Source: Bacilli bacterium
GTDB lineage: Bacteria; Bacillota_I; Bacilli_A; RF39; UBA660
NCBI GenBank assembly: GCA_017617435.1
Contig: JAFZWF010000018.1
Coordinates: 52,642 to 116,641 of the forward strand
Length of the DNA stretch: 64,000 nucleotides
Direction of reading: 5' to 3'
Shown: in pieces, positions 13,346 through 24,764 of the stretch
How the letters are laid out: each line of letters starts with the position of its first letter
Numbering within the stretch: position 1 is the stretch's first letter
The notes under the pieces: generated by a model
Told to the model about the DNA's origin: nothing
Database searches by the model: none
Seen by the model: only the letters and a program-made list of their open reading frames with translations
Made by a program: the position numbers and the translations under genes

Positions 13346-15745
13346 ATGATAGAAATTAAAAATTTACACAAGTATTTTAATAGACATAAGAAAAATGAAC
13401 TTCACGTAATTAATGATGTATCATTAAAACTTCCTCAAAAAGGATTAGTTGCACTTTTAGGTCCATCTGGTTCTGGTAAAACAACAATGCTTAATTTAAT
13501 AGGTGGGCTTGATAAACAAAATAAAGGTAAAGTAATAATTAATAATGATAAAATATCTAAAAAATCCTTCTTAAAAAGAGATAAATTAAGAACACTTAAT
13601 ATTGGATATATTTTTCAGGATTATAAGTTAATAGATGATGATTCTGTATTTGACAACGTAGCTCTATCACTTAAACTATTAGGTGTAAAAAACAAAAAAG
13701 AAATTAAAAGAAGAGTAGAATTTATCCTAGAAAAAGTTGATATGTTTAGATATCGATATCGTCCAGCTGGAATGCTATCTGGTGGTGAAAGACAAAGAGT
13801 AGGTATAGCAAGAGCATTAGTTAAAGATCCAGATATAATTTTAGCTGACGAACCAACCGGTAACTTAGATAGTAAGAATACTCTTGATGTTATGAATATA
13901 ATTACTCAAATAGCCAAAGAAAAATTAGTTATTTTAGTTACTCATGAACAAAATCTAGCTAAATTTTATGCAGATAGAGTAATTGAATTTGCTGATGGAG
14001 TAATTACAAAAGATTATAAAAATGAACAACCTGATGAACTTGATTATCAAGTTGAAAATAAGTTTTATCTTAAAGATTTTAAACATAAAAATAAAATTAA
14101 TAAAGATAATGCTGAAATTAATATTTATTCAAATGATAAAAGTAACGTTAAAATTGATATAGTTATTCGAAATGGAAACTATTATATTAAAACATACAAT
14201 AATTTCTTAACTCAGCTAGTAGATGAAAATTCTGCAGTAGAATTTATAGATGATAAATATAAAAAGATGAATAAAAATGATTTAGAAGTTAAATCATTTG
14301 ATGCTGAAGATATAAAGCATAAAAAATATAGTAGTATATTTAATGTATTTAGTTTTATATTTAAAGGCTTTGAAAAAGTATTTAATTATTCTTTTTTTAA
14401 AAAACTATTACTTGTAGGTTTTCTACTTTCTGGTGGCTTTATTCTTTATGCCATATCTTCTTACACCGCAGCTATTACAATTAAAGATGATATGTTTATT
14501 ACAGAATCAAGAGATTATGTAACTATAACTACAGGTAAAAACAATGTTGACGTGTATAAAAAGATTAAAAGCCTTGATGAAAATGCTTTTATAATTCCAG
14601 GATCAGCAACTGGTAAGTTCTATGTTAAAGAAGATTACTTATCTCAGTTCTTTGATTATAGTTTAGCTTTCTTAGGTAATTTAGTTCCACTTGATGCGGT
14701 AAGTAAAGAAGATTTAATATATGGTAGACTTCCAGAAAATTCAAGTGAAATAGTTGTAGATAAATTTTTAGTTAAGAAAAAACTAACAAGTCCTGATTAT
14801 AAAATGCAAGGAATAACAAGTGTTAAAGAATTATTAAATAAAACTTTAATTATGGAAATATCTGACAAAACATATAAAATAGTTGGTATATCAAATAAAA
14901 ATGAACCATGTATTTATATAGATAAAAATGATATAATTCCTATCATTCAATTAGGAAAACTAAATGAAGAAGAATCATATGATGAATCACAAATAATATA
15001 TAGTTATAGTTATAATAAGGATGATCTAAAAATAGTTAAAGGAAGAGAACCTGTTAAAGATTATGAAATAGTTGTAAATTATAATAGTAGATATGAGTAT
15101 CCTTTAAATAAAAAGATAGATACTCAAGTTAATAAAAACAAACTGCTTGTAGTAGGTTATTATAAATCTGATTACGATATAAATGATATATATGCTAGTG
15201 ATTCAACTATAATGTATAGTATTATACCTAAAACAAGTAACTATAGTATTTTTAAAGGAAATATTAATCTATATAAAGAAAATAACTATAGTGCTTCAAA
15301 TTCATATGAATTATCTAAAAATAAATATATTAAAGATAATAAAGAATCAGTTAAGTCTAAACTTATTGTTTCATCTATAATAATATCTATATCTTTAGTA
15401 GAAGCTTTCTTAATATCTAGATCAAGTTTCTTATCTAAAGTAAAAGAAGTAGGAACTTATAGAGCAATAGGTGTTAAAAGATTAGATATATGTAAGATGT
15501 TTGTTGGTGAATCATTTGCTATAACAACACTATCAAGTGTTCCTGGTATTATATTTGCAAGTTATGTACTTAAAAAATTAAGTAGTATTAAATACTTAAA
15601 ATATATGTATATTGTTAATTTCAAAGTAATAATTCTATCAATTATTATTGTATATGTATTTAATATCCTTGTATCTTTAATTCCAGTACTTAATTTAATT
15701 AGAAAGACACCAGCTAATATACTTTCAAGAAATGATGTAGATTAA
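13346..15745 (+). CDS. ABC transporter, fused ATPase and FtsX-family permease
   Basis: GPSGSGKTT, LSGGERQRVGIARAL, ILADEPTGNLD and C-terminal FtsX-like TM bundle. Starts 2 nt after the previous stop. Confidence 0.85.
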   Translation: MIEIKNLHKYFNRHKKNELHVINDVSLKLPQKGLVALLGPSGSGKTTMLNLIGGLDKQNKGKVIINNDKISKKSFLKRDKLRTLNIGYIFQDYKLIDDDSVFDNVALSLKLLGVKNKKEIKRRVEFILEKVDMFRYRYRPAGMLSGGERQRVGIARALVKDPDIILADEPTGNLDSKNTLDVMNIITQIAKEKLVILVTHEQNLAKFYADRVIEFADGVITKDYKNEQPDELDYQVENKFYLKDFKHKNKINKDNAEINIYSNDKSNVKIDIVIRNGNYYIKTYNNFLTQLVDENSAVEFIDDKYKKMNKNDLEVKSFDAEDIKHKKYSSIFNVFSFIFKGFEKVFNYSFFKKLLLVGFLLSGGFILYAISSYTAAITIKDDMFITESRDYVTITTGKNNVDVYKKIKSLDENAFIIPGSATGKFYVKEDYLSQFFDYSLAFLGNLVPLDAVSKEDLIYGRLPENSSEIVVDKFLVKKKLTSPDYKMQGITSVKELLNKTLIMEISDKTYKIVGISNKNEPCIYIDKNDIIPIIQLGKLNEEESYDESQIIYSYSYNKDDLKIVKGREPVKDYEIVVNYNSRYEYPLNKKIDTQVNKNKLLVVGYYKSDYDINDIYASDSTIMYSIIPKTSNYSIFKGNINLYKENNYSASNSYELSKNKYIKDNKESVKSKLIVSSIIISISLVEAFLISRSSFLSKVKEVGTYRAIGVKRLDICKMFVGESFAITTLSSVPGIIFASYVLKKLSSIKYLKYMYIVNFKVIILSIIIVYVFNILVSLIPVLNLIRKTPANILSRNDVD

Positions 15746-15747
15746 TT

Positions 15748-15783
15748 AAAATATGCTTTAAAATAAGCATATTTTAATTTTAA
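15748..15783 (+). terminator. rho-independent terminator of the tcdA-ABC operon
   Basis: AAAATATGCTT (15748-15758) pairs with AAGCATATTTT (15765-15775), followed by a T-rich tail. Confidence 0.75.
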
Positions 15784-15784
15784 A

Positions 15785-15812
15785 TTGACAAATTAATAAA
15801 TGTGTTTATAAT
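15785..15812 (+). promoter_or_regulatory. sigma-A-type promoter
   Basis: TTGACA (15785-15790), 16-nt spacer, TATAAT (15807-15812). Confidence 0.55.
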
Positions 15813-15846
15813 AAATAGAACTTTTCTTTAAAGAGTTGAATAAATA

Positions 15847-16020
15847 GTGGGTAGGAAGTTTGAAGTAAAACAAAATGGAAATTTATACAAAATGATAAGT
15901 GAAAAAAGTGAACAAGAAATCGTAGATTATATATATAAGATTTCACAGTATAAAACAGCAAAATACTTAAACAGAGAATGTTCAGATGGAAGTCCCAGAA
16001 CTATAGATTTTCTTAGATAA
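15847..16020 (+). CDS. possible small protein (57 aa, GTG start), not in the ORF track
   Basis: 58 stop-free codons in AT-rich DNA just downstream of a consensus promoter. The SD is weak, so the start is uncertain. Confidence 0.3.
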   Translation: MGRKFEVKQNGNLYKMISEKSEQEIVDYIYKISQYKTAKYLNRECSDGSPRTIDFLR

Positions 16021-16046
16021 CTTTTATTAATAATGGTGGTGAAAAA

Positions 16047-16391
16047 ATGAATAACAAACATAATTTTAAAGTAACGGATTATTCTAAAAGATATAATAAT
16101 ATTGGAAATAATAAAGAGATAGGTGATCCTGAGATATCAATAAAAAATATTGAGAGAATTCGACTTAATTCCGAAATTTTATCTTTAATAGAACAATATC
16201 ATGATGTTATTAATAAACTAGATAAATGCAAGGGAAATAACTCTCAACTTAACTTATTACTTAGAGAAAAAACTAAAATTCAGTTAAAACTACACAAACT
16301 GACTTTATTAACTAGTGAAAGTAATACAACCGAACTAATAAATAAGGTTGTACAAAAAAGAAATGAAACTATAAAACGTTTATTTAGATAA
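16047..16391 (+). CDS. hypothetical protein (114 aa)
   Basis: ORF with SD GGTGGTG upstream. Confidence 0.55.
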   Translation: MNNKHNFKVTDYSKRYNNIGNNKEIGDPEISIKNIERIRLNSEILSLIEQYHDVINKLDKCKGNNSQLNLLLREKTKIQLKLHKLTLLTSESNTTELINKVVQKRNETIKRLFR

Positions 16392-16399
16392 GAAAAAAC

Positions 16400-16428
16400 T
16401 TGACATTTGTTCGATATTTTGATATAAT
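16400..16428 (+). promoter_or_regulatory. conserved promoter module, copy 1
   Basis: TTGACATTTGTTCGATATTTTGATATAAT: consensus -35, 17-nt spacer, consensus -10. The first 22 nt are identical to the copies at 16599 and 24764 (minus strand). Confidence 0.75.
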
Positions 16429-16457
16429 TTATTCATACATATGAGGGGGTTATATGT

Positions 16458-16538
16458 ATGATGATTATATTAAAAATCGCGACATTTGGTATAATGGCTC
16501 GTGGTTACATAAAAATGACTGAGAAGAAAAATATATAA
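16458..16538 (+). CDS. 26-aa hydrophobic peptide, type I toxin-like (MMIILKIATFGIMARGYIKMTEKKNI)
   Basis: GAGGGGG SD lies 8 nt upstream, with own promoter and terminator. Paralogous to the peptide at 16656. Hydrophobic helix plus charged tail. Confidence 0.6.
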   Translation: MMIILKIATFGIMARGYIKMTEKKNI

Positions 16539-16572
16539 AAATGATTAGATTATGTTCTAATCATTTTTATTT
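16539..16572. terminator. hairpin terminator with bidirectional architecture
   Basis: AAATGATTAG (16539-16548) pairs with CTAATCATTT (16557-16566). A-run on the 5' side, T-run on the 3' side. Confidence 0.75.
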
Positions 16573-16598
16573 ATATTAGTAATAAAACACTGTATAAA

Positions 16599-16627
16599 TT
16601 GACATTTGTTCGATATTTTGATATAGT
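16599..16627 (+). promoter_or_regulatory. conserved promoter module, copy 2
   Basis: TTGACATTTGTTCGATATTTTGATATAGT. Confidence 0.75.
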
Positions 16628-16655
16628 TTATATATGTACAGGGGGATTGTACATT

Positions 16656-16733
16656 ATGATAGTATTGAAAATTGCAGTGTTTTGCGCACTTACTTATACA
16701 TATATTAAAACAGTAGATCGAAAAGATATATAA
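16656..16733 (+). CDS. 25-aa hydrophobic peptide, type I toxin-like (MIVLKIAVFCALTYTYIKTVDRKDI)
   Basis: GGGGGA SD lies 9 nt upstream, with own promoter and terminator. Aligns with the 16458 peptide (MI[IV]LKIA.F....YIK..[EDR]K[ND]I). Confidence 0.6.
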   Translation: MIVLKIAVFCALTYTYIKTVDRKDI

Positions 16734-16747
16734 TATTTTGTGTGAAA

Positions 16748-16780
16748 AAAGAGTAGATATAAGATTCTACTCTTTTAATT
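16748..16780. terminator. hairpin terminator with bidirectional architecture
   Basis: AAAGAGTAGA (16748-16757) pairs with TCTACTCTTT (16766-16775). Flanked by an A-run and a T-run. Confidence 0.75.
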
Positions 16781-16841
16781 ATAGATTGACTTATACTATA
16801 CGTATTTATATAATAACAAATTATACGGATGGAGGAATTTT

Positions 16842-17681
16842 ATGTTTAGTTTAGATAACGTTTCTATTGATAAACTAGGTCTTAGATATCAGTGGCCTAA
16901 GGCTTATATAGCAGCTAGTAAGGAAAATGTAAGAACAATTCAAGATTTTATAGATTTTATAAAAAAACATCCAGAGTATCAAAATGAAAAAAATGGTAAA
17001 TTAAATAATTATACTATTCAGATGAGATTGGATGAAATAATTAAAAGAGTAAATAGATTATCTAAAAATGGTAAAGAACCTGAAGTATATTTCTGTGAAA
17101 AATATAAGCATCCAGAACTTGAATATAATGATAGTTGTAATTATATTGATTCAATATTTTTTCAAAATGCAGCTCAAAAACAAATCCTAGATTACACATA
17201 TATGATTCCCGTAAGAATTGTAAAAAATGATTTAAGTTTAACAACATCTTATGGAGAGAACCAATTTAGATCGTATATTTATCGTTTAAATGATGAAAAA
17301 ATACAATCAATTATTAGTAATTTAAATATGTTTACAGAGCAAATAGAAAGACAAGCAAAATTAACTGATAGAAGAGATATAAATTTATTTTTATATGAAA
17401 GAAATATGAAAATAGAACTACTTAAGAAAAAGTATGCCGAAGTCATAGCTTATCTAATATATACTGATAAAGATTTAGTATGGGGAAAAATGAATGATAA
17501 AGAAAAAAGACTTTATTTATCATCAGTTTTCAAAACAGGTACTCAAAAAATGACATTTAATGAGCATAAATGCAAAGAGTTATTAATTAAACAAATAGCA
17601 AATTACACAACTTTACCAGAACTAGAAAATATGCACAAAGGTAATTATAACGTATTAAAAAGATTTATAAGAAAAGAATAG
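16842..17681 (+). CDS. hypothetical protein (279 aa)
   Basis: SD GGAGG. Promoter-like TTGACT-17-TATAAT at 16786-16814. Confidence 0.6.
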   Translation: MFSLDNVSIDKLGLRYQWPKAYIAASKENVRTIQDFIDFIKKHPEYQNEKNGKLNNYTIQMRLDEIIKRVNRLSKNGKEPEVYFCEKYKHPELEYNDSCNYIDSIFFQNAAQKQILDYTYMIPVRIVKNDLSLTTSYGENQFRSYIYRLNDEKIQSIISNLNMFTEQIERQAKLTDRRDINLFLYERNMKIELLKKKYAEVIAYLIYTDKDLVWGKMNDKEKRLYLSSVFKTGTQKMTFNEHKCKELLIKQIANYTTLPELENMHKGNYNVLKRFIRKE

Positions 17682-20567: not shown

Positions 20568-20732
20568 AAATAATTTACCTCCTATTAGTAGTATGCTCGT
20601 ATGCAAATATATTAATATGGTAATTATTGTAAAAATATATTGTTATTTTTACCGATAAATTATATAATAAATAGCACTTATTTTAATAAGGTTTTTCCAA
20701 ATATATTATTTTAATAGAAAGATGTGTTATTT

Positions 20733-21161
20733 ATGAATAAAAATAAAAAAGATACACATATACTACTTAAATTAATATATCCTATAACTTATATCACTTT
20801 AGGTTCTATTGCTATAACTGCATACTTTCAAAAACAAGACAAAAATAAGAAAATAATCGAACATGAATATATACTTACGTGTTCAAACGGTTATATGGAT
20901 ATTAATTATTTTGGCACCAAAGAAATAATTAAAAGTGAGTTTAAAGAATTTATTGATTATTTAAGTTTAGATGATAAATCACTAGTTGTATTTGTTTATG
21001 ATATAGATCAAGATAAAGCATTGTCTAAAGCAAATTTTATTAAAAATCATCTTGATTTTGATAATGATAATAATATCATTATCAAATCTAACTTTCTTAA
21101 TAAAGAAATATTTGAATATATTTATAAAGATTTAAATAACAAGACAAGAACAAGAAAATAA
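20733..21161 (+). CDS. single-pass membrane protein, paralog family member 1
   Basis: N-terminal TM helix plus a conserved C-terminal domain shared with the next two genes. ATG 20733 is preferred over GTG 20724. Confidence 0.6.
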   Translation: MNKNKKDTHILLKLIYPITYITLGSIAITAYFQKQDKNKKIIEHEYILTCSNGYMDINYFGTKEIIKSEFKEFIDYLSLDDKSLVVFVYDIDQDKALSKANFIKNHLDFDNDNNIIIKSNFLNKEIFEYIYKDLNNKTRTRK

Positions 21162-21194
21162 GTTATAATATTAAATTAAAGAAAGAGAGAGTTG

Positions 21195-21695
21195 ATGAAG
21201 ATGTCAGAATTTGATTTTAATTATACTGAAAATAATGGAAAGATGAATAATAAAAAAACTAAATCATTAAATGATAAAAAGGTCGTTAATTATGTATTAG
21301 CAGGTGGAATTTTTCTTGGAGGGTTAACAACAGGAATTATAATTGGTTCAAGTCAAACAGAAAGCGACTATAAAAAAACTAAAGAAAAAGAATGTGCTGC
21401 AATTGTTATTCAAAATGGAGAAATCAAAGTGTATGATTTGGGTACACAGGATGTTAGAAAGAAAATGGATAAAAACTACGAAAAATACTATTTTGAAGAA
21501 AGTAAAACAGCTGTTTATATTATCTATGGTGATGAAGCATTTAATAGAGCACAACTTATCACATATAATATTGAATTAGATAAAAATAATTATTTAATTA
21601 ATGATGGTTTATTTAGTGATGAATATTATTATGAATATAAAAAATTAGATGAAAATGGTGTAAAAACTAGTAGTATCAGTCGTAAAGCTGAATAA
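21195..21695 (+). CDS. single-pass membrane protein, paralog family member 2
   Basis: TM helix (VLAGGIFLGGLTTGIIIG) and shared motifs (IKVYD, VYIIYG, NIELDKNNYLI, YYYEY). The start could be 21192, 21195 or 21201. Confidence 0.6.
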   Translation: MKMSEFDFNYTENNGKMNNKKTKSLNDKKVVNYVLAGGIFLGGLTTGIIIGSSQTESDYKKTKEKECAAIVIQNGEIKVYDLGTQDVRKKMDKNYEKYYFEESKTAVYIIYGDEAFNRAQLITYNIELDKNNYLINDGLFSDEYYYEYKKLDENGVKTSSISRKAE

Positions 21696-21724
21696 TTTAA
21701 TATAACAGAAGGGCAGAGGTTTTT

Positions 21725-22225
21725 ATGATAATGAGAAATCCTGATAGAAAGTTTGAAAGACTTGGTATTGATTTTGATAGTGATCCAGTTGTTATTAATA
21801 ACGAATCTAATGTAACAAAAAAGGAAGATATACTTATAAATGTTGTATCATTTACTTTGGCCACATCTTTAGTTGGCATTATAATAATACCAAATGCAAA
21901 ATCGTGTGAACATTTAAAAATTTACAAGACTTCTTCACTTATAGTAATAAATAATCATGAAATTCATATCTATGATAATGTACCTATTGAAGAAGTACAT
22001 ACAAAAAATAAATATAATATAATTGAATTAAATAATCAAAACTGGTTAATTTATGTTTATGGTGCCAATGCATCACAATATTCTGATTTTATGGCATCTA
22101 ATATATATTTTGATGAAAATAACAAAATCGTTTTAGATTCATTTAAATTAACAGATGAAAACTTTGAATATTTTATCAATAACGAAAACTCAAATGATAA
22201 TAATTCACGCGTAAGAAAAGGGTAG
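21725..22225 (+). CDS. single-pass membrane protein, paralog family member 3
   Basis: TM helix (FTLATSLVGIIIIP) and shared motifs (IHIYD, LIYVYG, NIYFDENNKIV, NFEYF). Confidence 0.6.
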   Translation: MIMRNPDRKFERLGIDFDSDPVVINNESNVTKKEDILINVVSFTLATSLVGIIIIPNAKSCEHLKIYKTSSLIVINNHEIHIYDNVPIEEVHTKNKYNIIELNNQNWLIYVYGANASQYSDFMASNIYFDENNKIVLDSFKLTDENFEYFINNENSNDNNSRVRKG

Positions 22226-22234
22226 TGATACGCT

Positions 22235-22687
22235 TTGAAAAAAATAAGTAAACTAAAATTATTAATTAAAGAAAAAGAAAGAGAACTTGATCAAAAATAT
22301 ATTAAAGAGATGAATAATATTAAAGACTATTATTTATCTTATGTATATTACAAAGCTTTATCTAAATACTGTTTATTTGAAATATATAACGCACTTTTAA
22401 TGAGTTCAACTACTGAAGAAGAATTTGAAAAAAAATTACAAGATCTAATGTTTGAAATAAGTCAGTTTAGATATACTGATAAAGATTATATTAGAGAAAA
22501 CTATAATTCTAAAATTAAAGAACTTAAATATGATGTAAAAAAAGAAGAATTATTTGCAAGTTCTATGATTTATGAAAAAATAGAAGATTATAACTATGAA
22601 TCAAATAGAAATAGGGATAAAGAACTGGATAAAGTAAAAAAATCATTTATTAGAAGGAGAACTCAAAATGGAAAACAAAATAAATAA
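22235..22687 (+). CDS. hypothetical protein (150 aa, charged, probably coiled-coil)
   Basis: ORF with a TTG start in the same transcription direction. No recognisable motif. Confidence 0.5.
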   Translation: MKKISKLKLLIKEKERELDQKYIKEMNNIKDYYLSYVYYKALSKYCLFEIYNALLMSSTTEEEFEKKLQDLMFEISQFRYTDKDYIRENYNSKIKELKYDVKKEELFASSMIYEKIEDYNYESNRNRDKELDKVKKSFIRRRTQNGKQNK

Positions 22688-22940
22688 TGTTACTGAAATG
22701 AAAAATATATATGATGCATTATCTAATATGTATGATAATATCTTGCTTAAAGGAGTAGAGTTATCCGTTGAATATTTTTATCCAATTATAAATTCAATTA
22801 ATACAAATGATTTATTATTTTTAAAACATGGTATTAAATATTATAATCTTAGCAGTAATATAGATAAAAATACATATTTTTCTAATTTAATTGATTCATG
22901 TATTCAAAATAGATTAGGAAAAGGATTAAGTAGAGATTAA
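22668..22940 (+). CDS. hypothetical protein (90 aa)
   Basis: AGGAG SD before the ATG. 20-nt overlap with the upstream ORF. Confidence 0.5.
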   Translation: MENKINNVTEMKNIYDALSNMYDNILLKGVELSVEYFYPIINSINTNDLLFLKHGIKYYNLSSNIDKNTYFSNLIDSCIQNRLGKGLSRD

Positions 22941-24711: not shown

Positions 24712-24735
24712 ATAATCCCCCTATACATGAGAATA

Positions 24736-24764
24736 ATTATAACAAAATATCGAACAAATGTCAA
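24736..24764 (-). promoter_or_regulatory. conserved promoter module, copy 3
   Basis: The reverse complement reads TTGACATTTGTTCGATATTTTGTTATAAT. Confidence 0.75.

Follow-up and report, generated by a model that had tools for sequence, protein, structure and literature searches.

Tandem micro-cassettes of an uncultured low-GC Bacilli bacterium encode small, probably membrane-located peptides behind a promoter that is shared with unrelated genes

Introduction

Two head-to-tail micro-cassettes are located at 16400-16577 and 16599-16784 on the forward strand of a 64,000-nt stretch of DNA from a Bacilli bacterium of the RF39 lineage (GenBank assembly GCA_017617435.1, contig JAFZWF010000018.1, positions 52,642 to 116,641; hereafter the window, whose positions serve as coordinates throughout). 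Each comprises a consensus promoter, a Shine-Dalgarno (SD) sequence of five G, a tiny open reading frame (ORF) and a hairpin, and the window has a GC content of about 24%. Since an earlier note on this DNA, made from the sequence alone, had read the two ORFs as type I toxin-like genes, the locus raises the question whether it harbors type I toxin-antitoxin (TA) modules or small genes of another kind.

The defining features of type I systems were taken from the literature (PMC8594479, PMC7472228, PMC2887945). The heuristics of Fozo et al. 2010 for candidate toxins comprise a length of 16-70 aa, at least 10 hydrophobic residues within 15, tandem copies and a polar C-terminus (PMC2887945). Toxins of the Fst/Ldr type feature a PXXXG motif in the transmembrane (TM) helix or a conserved Trp following the helix (PMC7472228, PMC2887945), and in par RNA I a 5' hairpin encloses the SD sequence (PMC7472228).

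From the comparative analysis presented here we conclude, with a probability of about 60%, that the cassettes are independent paralogous genes of a lineage-restricted family, which encode small membrane peptides within a lineage-specific, operator-controlled regulon. Control appears to be exerted by transcription and intramolecular RNA structure, and not by a dedicated antisense antitoxin.

Results

The two cassettes carry paralogous peptide genes under purifying selection

All elements described in the earlier note, i.e. promoter, G5 SD sequence, tiny ORF and hairpin, are present in both tandem cassettes (Table 1). The two promoters, which are of the extended sigma-70 type with perfect or nearly perfect elements, are identical in 34 of 36 nt (94%), a point not raised in the earlier note, while the ORFs have strongly diverged, and a 33-nt promoter block occurs three times in the window compared to 0.00 copies expected by chance. 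Because of this recurrence, and because the two ORFs are homologous in one frame, which is kept by 13 further homologues, the cassettes are not a product of chance; the proposed paralogy of the two peptides (referred to as c1 and c2) is thereby corroborated.

Loci of relatives, which are designated by L numbers, were retrieved by an exact scan of GTDB genomes, JGI metagenomes and IMG/VR with the first 22 nt of the promoter (TTGACATTTGTTCGATATTTTG), and additional ones via homologues of the flanking ABC protein. Peptide homologues were then gathered from the first ORF behind each promoter and by searching every small ORF of the retrieved loci with a profile. The exact scan yielded four loci in GTDB, originating from two metagenome-assembled genomes ("uncultured Tenericutes bacterium" and "uncultured Erysipelotrichaceae bacterium RUG13160"), 12 loci in JGI metagenomes and no match in IMG/VR. 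Including c1 and c2, 15 distinct peptide sequences were obtained from about ten related uncultured low-GC Bacilli, the records of which are labeled 'Tenericutes' or 'Erysipelotrichaceae'. The members are 18-32 aa long, mostly 25-26 aa; examples are MIVLKMAVFFALARTFVKKVDKEDIF, MIILKIAVFYALAHTYIKTIDKTNI, MILVKLAIFYAMARKYVKTVDKKHI and MIILKIAIFFALVHIFIKSIDKDRI, whereas MIQFMLKLTVFFVMTYGFIKN, MLLICKLALFYGFTSKFIIKDNN and MLILQLAVFYVFVRRFAK are more divergent. Contigs with an identical 279-aa neighbor (L001-L004) are 100% identical to the window over the cassettes and are therefore uninformative.

A search of 5.8 billion predicted proteins, using a profile with a 44-aa extended ORF as first row, recovered a single member (P0001, 32 aa), the remaining ones being absent because they are too short for gene calling. 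The peptides gave no matches in Pfam, in NCBIfam at E <= 10 or in PHROGs, and none by tblastn against PLSDB plasmids and INPHARED phages. A peptide-pattern scan of IMG/VR returned only one chance match in another frame (L009), and both promoter and peptide are absent from PLSDB, INPHARED and IMG/VR.

The codon analysis was based on the eight full-length members. Mean pairwise differences per site amount to 0.29 at first, 0.23 at second and 0.51 at third codon positions, so that third positions vary about twice as much as the first two, and the ratio of nonsynonymous to synonymous substitution rates (dN/dS) is about 0.1-0.45 wherever dS is measurable (e.g. 0.044/0.453 for L021b versus L017b and 0.204/0.453 for c2 versus L021b). 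In all eight copies the stop is found at codon 25-26, and both alternative frames are full of stops. Amino-acid conservation spans the whole peptide regardless of the downstream genes. These comparisons indicate that the peptide frame is under purifying selection and that both tiny genes are real; conservation of the frame in relatives, which the earlier note had named as a check, is indeed observed.

With respect to c1, the most divergent full-length copy (dN 0.32-0.48 versus the others), a length of 25-26 aa had been given; the family alignment supports the 25-aa form starting at 16461 and not the 26-aa form starting at 16458. An additional, out-of-frame ATG at 16454, located 4 nt past the G-run, opens a 22-aa ORF (MYDDYIKNRDIWYNGSWLHKND, 16454-16522, + strand), which measures 7 aa in L014 and is absent from the other homologues. 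Judged by this distribution, the 22-aa ORF is probably not a gene, and its ATG could act as a decoy start within the leader hairpin.

Several genomes (L021, L017, L030) encode two paralogues, first an "A" type (MII.KI...H.FIK) and then a "B" type (MIV.K.AVF.ALA.TFVKKVDK). The duplication into a tandem pair thus probably predates the species represented by the window.

The peptides resemble short membrane helices

Each of the 15 peptides has a 15-residue segment in which 10 or more residues are hydrophobic, carries a net charge of +1 to +5 with a polar tail, and lacks Pro and Trp. Hydrophobicity averages 0.52-0.88 over the first 17 residues, and the hydrophobic moment of 0.11-0.19 resembles that of Fst and PepA1, compared to 0.44-0.60 for PSM-alpha3 and delta-toxin. 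AlphaFold2 predicts one helix (residues 2-31) with a mean confidence score (pLDDT) of 80. K5, F9 and K18 are invariant in the first nine members aligned, and K5 is replaced by Q or C in the two most divergent later members. According to these predictions, each peptide would fold into one alpha-helix, hydrophobic over about 17 residues at the N-terminus and followed by a net-positive polar tail, a profile that fits a short membrane helix in N-out/C-in orientation.

A nearly invariant promoter block points to a possible small regulon

The first 16 nt of the promoter, TTGACATTTGTTCGAT, which consist of the -35 hexamer and the next 10 nt, are nearly invariant across genomes, a feature that, like the leader hairpin described below, does not appear in the earlier note. 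In 33 distinct contexts, conservation of the promoter consensus TTGACATTTGTTCGATA falls below 90% at no position, the spacer sequence being TTTGTTCGAT, and TTGACATTTGTTCGAT is kept in 12 of the 14 instances from loci found without use of the motif. In comparison, the adjacent ABC gene shows only 63-82% nucleotide identity in its last 600 nt over the same genomes. Since a -35 hexamer requires no conserved spacer, we infer that a DNA-binding factor may act on the invariant block.

Known operators were compared with the block. The LexA/Cheo box GAAC-N4-GTTC is absent from the window, the block TTGACATTTGTTCG fitting just one half-site, and none of the consensus sequences for CtsR, CodY, cre, PurBox, the Spo0A box and SinR represents a convincing fit.

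The same promoter, sharing the 22-nt core, precedes unrelated genes in relatives and in the window (Table 1). These encode a 430-aa Fic-domain protein, a DUF218 protein, a 449-aa orphan, a 1128-aa protein with weak winged-helix-like matches, all of them below the Pfam cut-offs, a 228-aa protein with a weak WG-repeat match below the cut-off, a zinc-ribbon-like Cys-rich 127-aa protein, and small hydrophilic proteins of 40 and 68 aa. This sharing of a promoter sequence suggests a small lineage-specific regulon. Within the window, promoter copy 3 heads a predicted operon of orphans of 68 aa, 99 aa (24492-24193) and 139 aa (24184-23765), and the C-terminal half of the 68-aa protein resembles the 40-aa peptide encoded behind the same promoter in L008 and L019.

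A leader hairpin presents the Shine-Dalgarno sequence

In all 15 peptide genes a hairpin begins at about +1 of the leader, with the G-run SD sequence in or at its loop and a 3' arm that abuts or contains the start codon. In cassette 1, the ATGs at 16454 and 16458 lie inside the 3' arm and the ATG at 16461 at its base. The leader stems differ and the fold is kept (GUAC/GUAC, UGCA/UGCA with an A-U to G-C exchange, and CAUACAUAU/AUAUGUAUG); this covariation was taken from individual folds, and the MAFFT alignment of the leaders is not structurally consistent. Decay of mRNA in Firmicutes involves the 5'-end-dependent RNase J1, and 5' stabilizer stem-loops as well as STAB-SD elements are known. By analogy, the leader hairpin may both stabilize the mRNA and limit access of the 30S subunit.

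The symmetric terminators are shared with convergent genes in relatives

A terminator with A-run, hairpin and T-run follows seven of the 15 peptide genes; L014 has only a weak hairpin. A good SD sequence and a second, unrelated small ORF are located 13-25 nt downstream in 7/15 homologues, which are thus predicted to be bicistronic. The earlier note had assigned strong bidirectional terminators to both cassettes. Indeed, both hairpins fold on both strands, in cassette 1 equally well, but in cassette 2 there are only four U on the + strand, all of them within the stem, compared to six on the - strand, and this hairpin is therefore a weaker terminator in sense than in antisense direction. It probably terminates only partially before the 279-aa gene.

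The combination of A-run and T-run had been taken as a layout indicative of an antisense RNA. In L022, L024 and L026, the peptide gene shares a terminator of this kind with convergent gpsA or rarA (L022:6060-6130, L024:7774-7805, L026:6594-6625), the stop codons of which lie in or directly beside the hairpin; hence, terminator symmetry is not diagnostic of an antisense RNA. In L022, the peptide is six residues longer because its ORF extends into the hairpin's 5' arm. These three loci also illustrate how extremely compact the 3' ends are in these genomes.

Membership in type I toxin-antitoxin systems is partly contradicted

We next consider whether the cassettes could be type I modules, in which a membrane toxin is checked by a cis-encoded antisense RNA that is either convergent and uses the same bidirectional terminator, as in par/Fst, or runs over the 5' leader. 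The tandem paralogues with their TM-like helix and charged tail fall within the heuristics of Fozo et al. 2010 (PMC2887945), their physico-chemical profile is similar to that of Fst and PepA1, the SD sequence is enclosed by a 5' hairpin, and the hairpins fold on both strands, with the better U-tract of cassette 2 on the minus strand. Accordingly, the resemblance to Fst/Ldr peptides claimed in the earlier note holds for the hydrophobic helix and the charged tail, but PXXXG and Trp are lacking in 15/15 peptides, and the suggested comparison with toxin hidden Markov models (HMMs) gave no match in Pfam or NCBIfam.

The antisense partner itself could not be traced. Among the 15 homologues, a scan for antisense promoters found none in six, including cassette 1, and only weak (9-10/12), scattered sites in the rest, none of which is conserved; four of the 15 carry such a site about 74-81 nt past the stop. 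A shuffle control suggests that the match rate of about one per homologue does not exceed the chance background. The only candidate antisense RNA would arise from a weak promoter (10/12) on the minus strand at 16848->16820 and extend over about 65 nt to the cassette 2 terminator; its duplex with the translation-initiation region (-10.8 kcal/mol) is not significant, being equaled by 12.6% of shuffles. The scans of 16400-16790 and of the 15 homologues thus agree with the earlier note, in which no antisense promoter had been identified with confidence. No copy of the translation-initiation region, as expected for DRa/DRb-type repeats, was found within about 150 nt downstream of either terminator, and a blastn-short search of the window for a trans-complementary segment returned only low-complexity A/T matches. 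Rfam antitoxin families were not detected at E <= 10 in 15700-17000, where only two irrelevant weak matches occurred, and the whole window contains no Rfam family at gathering thresholds and no tRNA gene.

The genomic arrangement also argues against antisense control. The cassette 1 start lies 70 nt past a 114-aa ORF, and the second ORF of 7/15 homologues is predicted to be co-transcribed with the peptide gene, so that the cassettes are not isolated; neighbors at a distance of 70 nt or less leave no room for a separate small RNA (sRNA) gene. Moreover, synonymous sites vary freely, and therefore no embedded antisense promoter is under constraint. Together with the sharing of the symmetric terminators by gpsA/rarA, this makes type I modules an unlikely explanation. 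The designation as type I toxin-like is appropriate for size, helix, tail, tandem copies and SD hairpin, and is not supported with respect to antisense partner, direct repeats, isolation and membership in known families. The peptides may still act like membrane toxins, whereas their type I membership is unproven and partly contradicted.

An equally unlikely variant would dispense with the antisense RNA: the invariant 16-nt block would mark a repressor-gated, SOS- or defense-like regulon, and the peptides would be membrane toxins silenced by the operator and the hairpin with its SD sequence in the loop. If this were true, the control logic of these toxins would be distinct from that of classical type I systems, and the regulon members would include a Fic-domain protein.

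Conserved synteny with ABC/FtsX genes and the possibility of export

Every homologue lies between a fused ABC_tran+FtsX gene (13346-15745 in the window), which precedes it, and convergent gpsA and/or rarA, which follow. Two adjacent ABC_tran+FtsX genes are always found upstream of the peptide gene, with an ABC protein identity of 58-100% across these genomes, and the ABC genes end in a terminator of their own. Neither peptide nor promoter is present in L027, which has a different context and an ABC homologue of just 55% identity, and in L006 (RUG13160) the promoter is present with no peptide homologue detected.

The immediate vicinity of both ABC/FtsX genes in every genome carrying the peptide gene would be compatible with leaderless exported peptides (bacteriocin-like, similar to phenol-soluble modulins (PSMs), or signaling) that are secreted by this MacB-type pair, as would the cationic tandem paralogues without signal peptide and the very strong predicted promoter. 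However, the loci are all orthologous and the adjacency may be inherited synteny, the separately terminated ABC genes persist without the peptide in L006 and L027, and the same promoter drives cytoplasmic proteins such as the Fic protein. In addition, the low hydrophobic moment shows that the peptides are not amphipathic as PSM-alpha3 and delta-toxin are, and a double-glycine leader, a Trp- or Gly-rich bacteriocin signature and an immunity or modification gene are all missing. We therefore rate export somewhat lower still than the two toxin explanations.

Far less probable are cis-acting leader peptides, i.e. upstream ORFs that control hairpin termination or downstream translation. It is true that 7/15 homologues are first cistrons and that in cassette 1, L017b and L022 the stop lies in or beside the 5' arm of the hairpin, where a terminating ribosome could affect folding; but the whole amino-acid sequence is conserved whatever is located downstream, the downstream genes are unrelated and have strong SD sequences of their own, and stand-alone copies precede a fresh promoter (cassette 1) or a convergent gene, L026 having nothing downstream to regulate. 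That the cassettes merely give rise to non-coding small RNAs, or that the ORFs occur by chance in intergenic DNA rich in AT, as their shortness, the failure of gene callers and the single homologue among the predicted proteins might suggest, is practically refuted by codon-position bias, conserved length and stop, dN/dS below 1 and the closed other frames.

Table 1 Positions of the promoters, leaders, peptide genes and hairpins in the window and of promoter-driven loci in relatives.
Feature	Position	Strand	Details
Cassette 1 promoter (predicted)	16400-16428	+	TTGACA-17-TATAAT, TG extension; first 16 nt TTGACATTTGTTCGAT
Cassette 1 leader hairpin	16433-16461	+	arms 16433-16444/16450-16461, loop GGGGG, dG -12.7 kcal/mol, z = -5.0
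Cassette 1 SD sequence GGGGG	16445-16449	+	
Peptide gene c1	16461-16538	+	MIILKIATFGIMARGYIKMTEKKNI, 25 aa (MIILK...); alternative start 16458, 26 aa
Cassette 1 terminator hairpin	16535-16570	+	15-bp stem including A-run/T-run, overlaps stop codon, dG -16.6 kcal/mol, z = -6.1
Cassette 2 promoter (predicted)	16599-16627	+	TTGACA, same 17-nt spacer with TG, TATAGT
Cassette 2 leader hairpin	16634-16654	+	AUGUACAG / UUGUACAU, begins at about +1; longer fold dG -8.8 kcal/mol
Cassette 2 SD sequence GGGGG	16641-16645	+	in or beside leader-hairpin loop
Peptide gene c2	16656-16733	+	MIVLKIAVFCALTYTYIKTVDRKDI, 25 aa
Cassette 2 hairpin	16747-16776	+	11-bp stem, dG -15.1 kcal/mol, z = -3.5
Separate promoter-like site	16786-16814	+	TTGACT-17-TATAAT; upstream of 279-aa orphan ORF 16842-17681
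Promoter copy 3	24732-24764	-	followed by GGGGG SD sequence in leader hairpin and 68-aa ORF 24711-24505
Loci with 22-nt core before unrelated genes	L005:1141-2495, L020:147-1485, L011:1320-2043, L013:648-4113, L012:450-1855, L014:4636-5385, L006:1671-2110		

Gene content around the cassettes

Comparison of window positions 15785-17681 with L006, L014, L017, L018, L021, L022, L024, L026, L028 and L030 reveals a variable hot spot between ABC/FtsX and convergent gpsA/rarA. At one extreme, it contains nothing but the peptide cassette (L026), at the other, five orphan genes (L030), and promoter copies recur before successive units. The peptide cassette is the most persistent occupant, since it is the sole gene left between ABC and rarA in L026.

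In the window, a 57-aa ORF (15847-16020) and the 114-aa ORF (16047-16391), both on the + strand, match different parts of one 96-aa protein of L022 (E = 3e-7 and 4e-9, respectively), so that they resemble relatives of a single gene that have been split or rearranged. A C-terminal motif, ...SPRTIDFLR, is reminiscent of the recognition helix of helix-turn-helix (HTH) proteins, without Pfam or PDB sequence support; an assignment of the 57-aa and 96-aa neighbors as HTH regulators likewise found no support in Pfam or PDB sequences.

Further downstream (20724-22225, + strand), three consecutive ORFs of 145, 167 and 166 aa are distant paralogues with 25-29% identity. Each has one hydrophobic segment near its N-terminus, as judged by eye, and the trio is flanked by orphan ORFs of 154 and 150 aa. 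In L001, a DUF285 fragment is located in the region just downstream, corresponding to about 22670-22835 of the window.

Discussion

We propose that the tandem cassettes encode small membrane peptides whose expression is governed by a lineage-specific operator. A putative DNA-binding factor at the invariant block would co-regulate the peptides with unrelated accessory genes (Fic, DUF218 and orphan small proteins), and the 5'-terminal hairpin would protect the mRNA end and/or throttle the initiation of translation. The peptide itself may insert into the membrane in N-out/C-in orientation and act there, either as a small modulator or, when induced, in a membrane-perturbing manner.

Several points weigh against this proposal. 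The promoter, the start site of transcription, the role of the hairpin and the location in the membrane are all predicted, and the regulator acting on the invariant block is putative. Most promoter instances were found with the exact 22-mer, which inflates the apparent conservation, only 14 instances being independent of the motif. With about 17 residues, the hydrophobic stretch is close to the minimum that can span a bilayer, and it contains a conserved Lys at position 5 and often Arg or His at position 14; full membrane insertion is therefore uncertain. Finally, no promoter-like site was found on the minus strand of 16400-16790, but prediction in DNA of 24% GC cannot exclude one.

The family shares features with several known groups of small proteins. 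Similar to the type I toxins of the Fst/Ldr family (par of pAD1, PepA1/SprA1), it combines a helix and a charged tail with a low hydrophobic moment, tandem chromosomal copies, a 5' stem-loop involving the SD sequence and a terminator hairpin that folds on both strands (PMC7472228). In contrast to these toxins, neither PXXXG nor Trp, an RNA II promoter, DRa/DRb or an HMM match was found here, the peptides have a shorter hydrophobic stretch of about 17 aa, half of the members are bicistronic, and a perfect-consensus promoter is common to unrelated genes.

TisB and DinQ are membrane toxins of the LexA regulon with sRNA antitoxins (IstR-1 and AgrB, respectively). They likewise combine a peptide of about 25-29 aa with a strong promoter and a conserved operator-like element common to other regulon genes, but the block described here is not a Cheo/LexA box. 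Size, a single helix and the absence of a signal peptide are shared with small proteins such as KdpF, AcrZ, Prli42 and SpoVM, which modulate larger membrane complexes (review: PMC10730256), and so are the restriction to a lineage, the lack of annotation and the location beside a transporter gene. Unlike these, the peptides described here are transcribed separately from the transporter, and tandem paralogues with a shared special promoter are not typical of such proteins. Autonomous cassettes of the moron type also consist of promoter, gene and terminator units, here of about 180 nt, stacked in a hot spot between core genes; in this case, however, there is no phage context, and promoter and peptide do not occur in the phage and plasmid collections searched.

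By kind, the gene products are small hydrophobic, toxin-like peptides, and the promoter-defined mini-regulon is the more intriguing lead. The family is newly recognized and previously undescribed, belongs to uncultured low-GC Bacilli of gut and rumen, and demonstrates no new principle. For these bacteria, it adds a family of small proteins that evolve under purifying selection and escape gene callers. The locus also represents a cautionary case, since tandem mini-ORFs that look like type I toxins turn out, by comparative genomics, to include operon members and to use terminators common to convergent genes. The near-invariant promoter block may provide a handle for finding a regulator in an uncultured lineage with reduced genomes.

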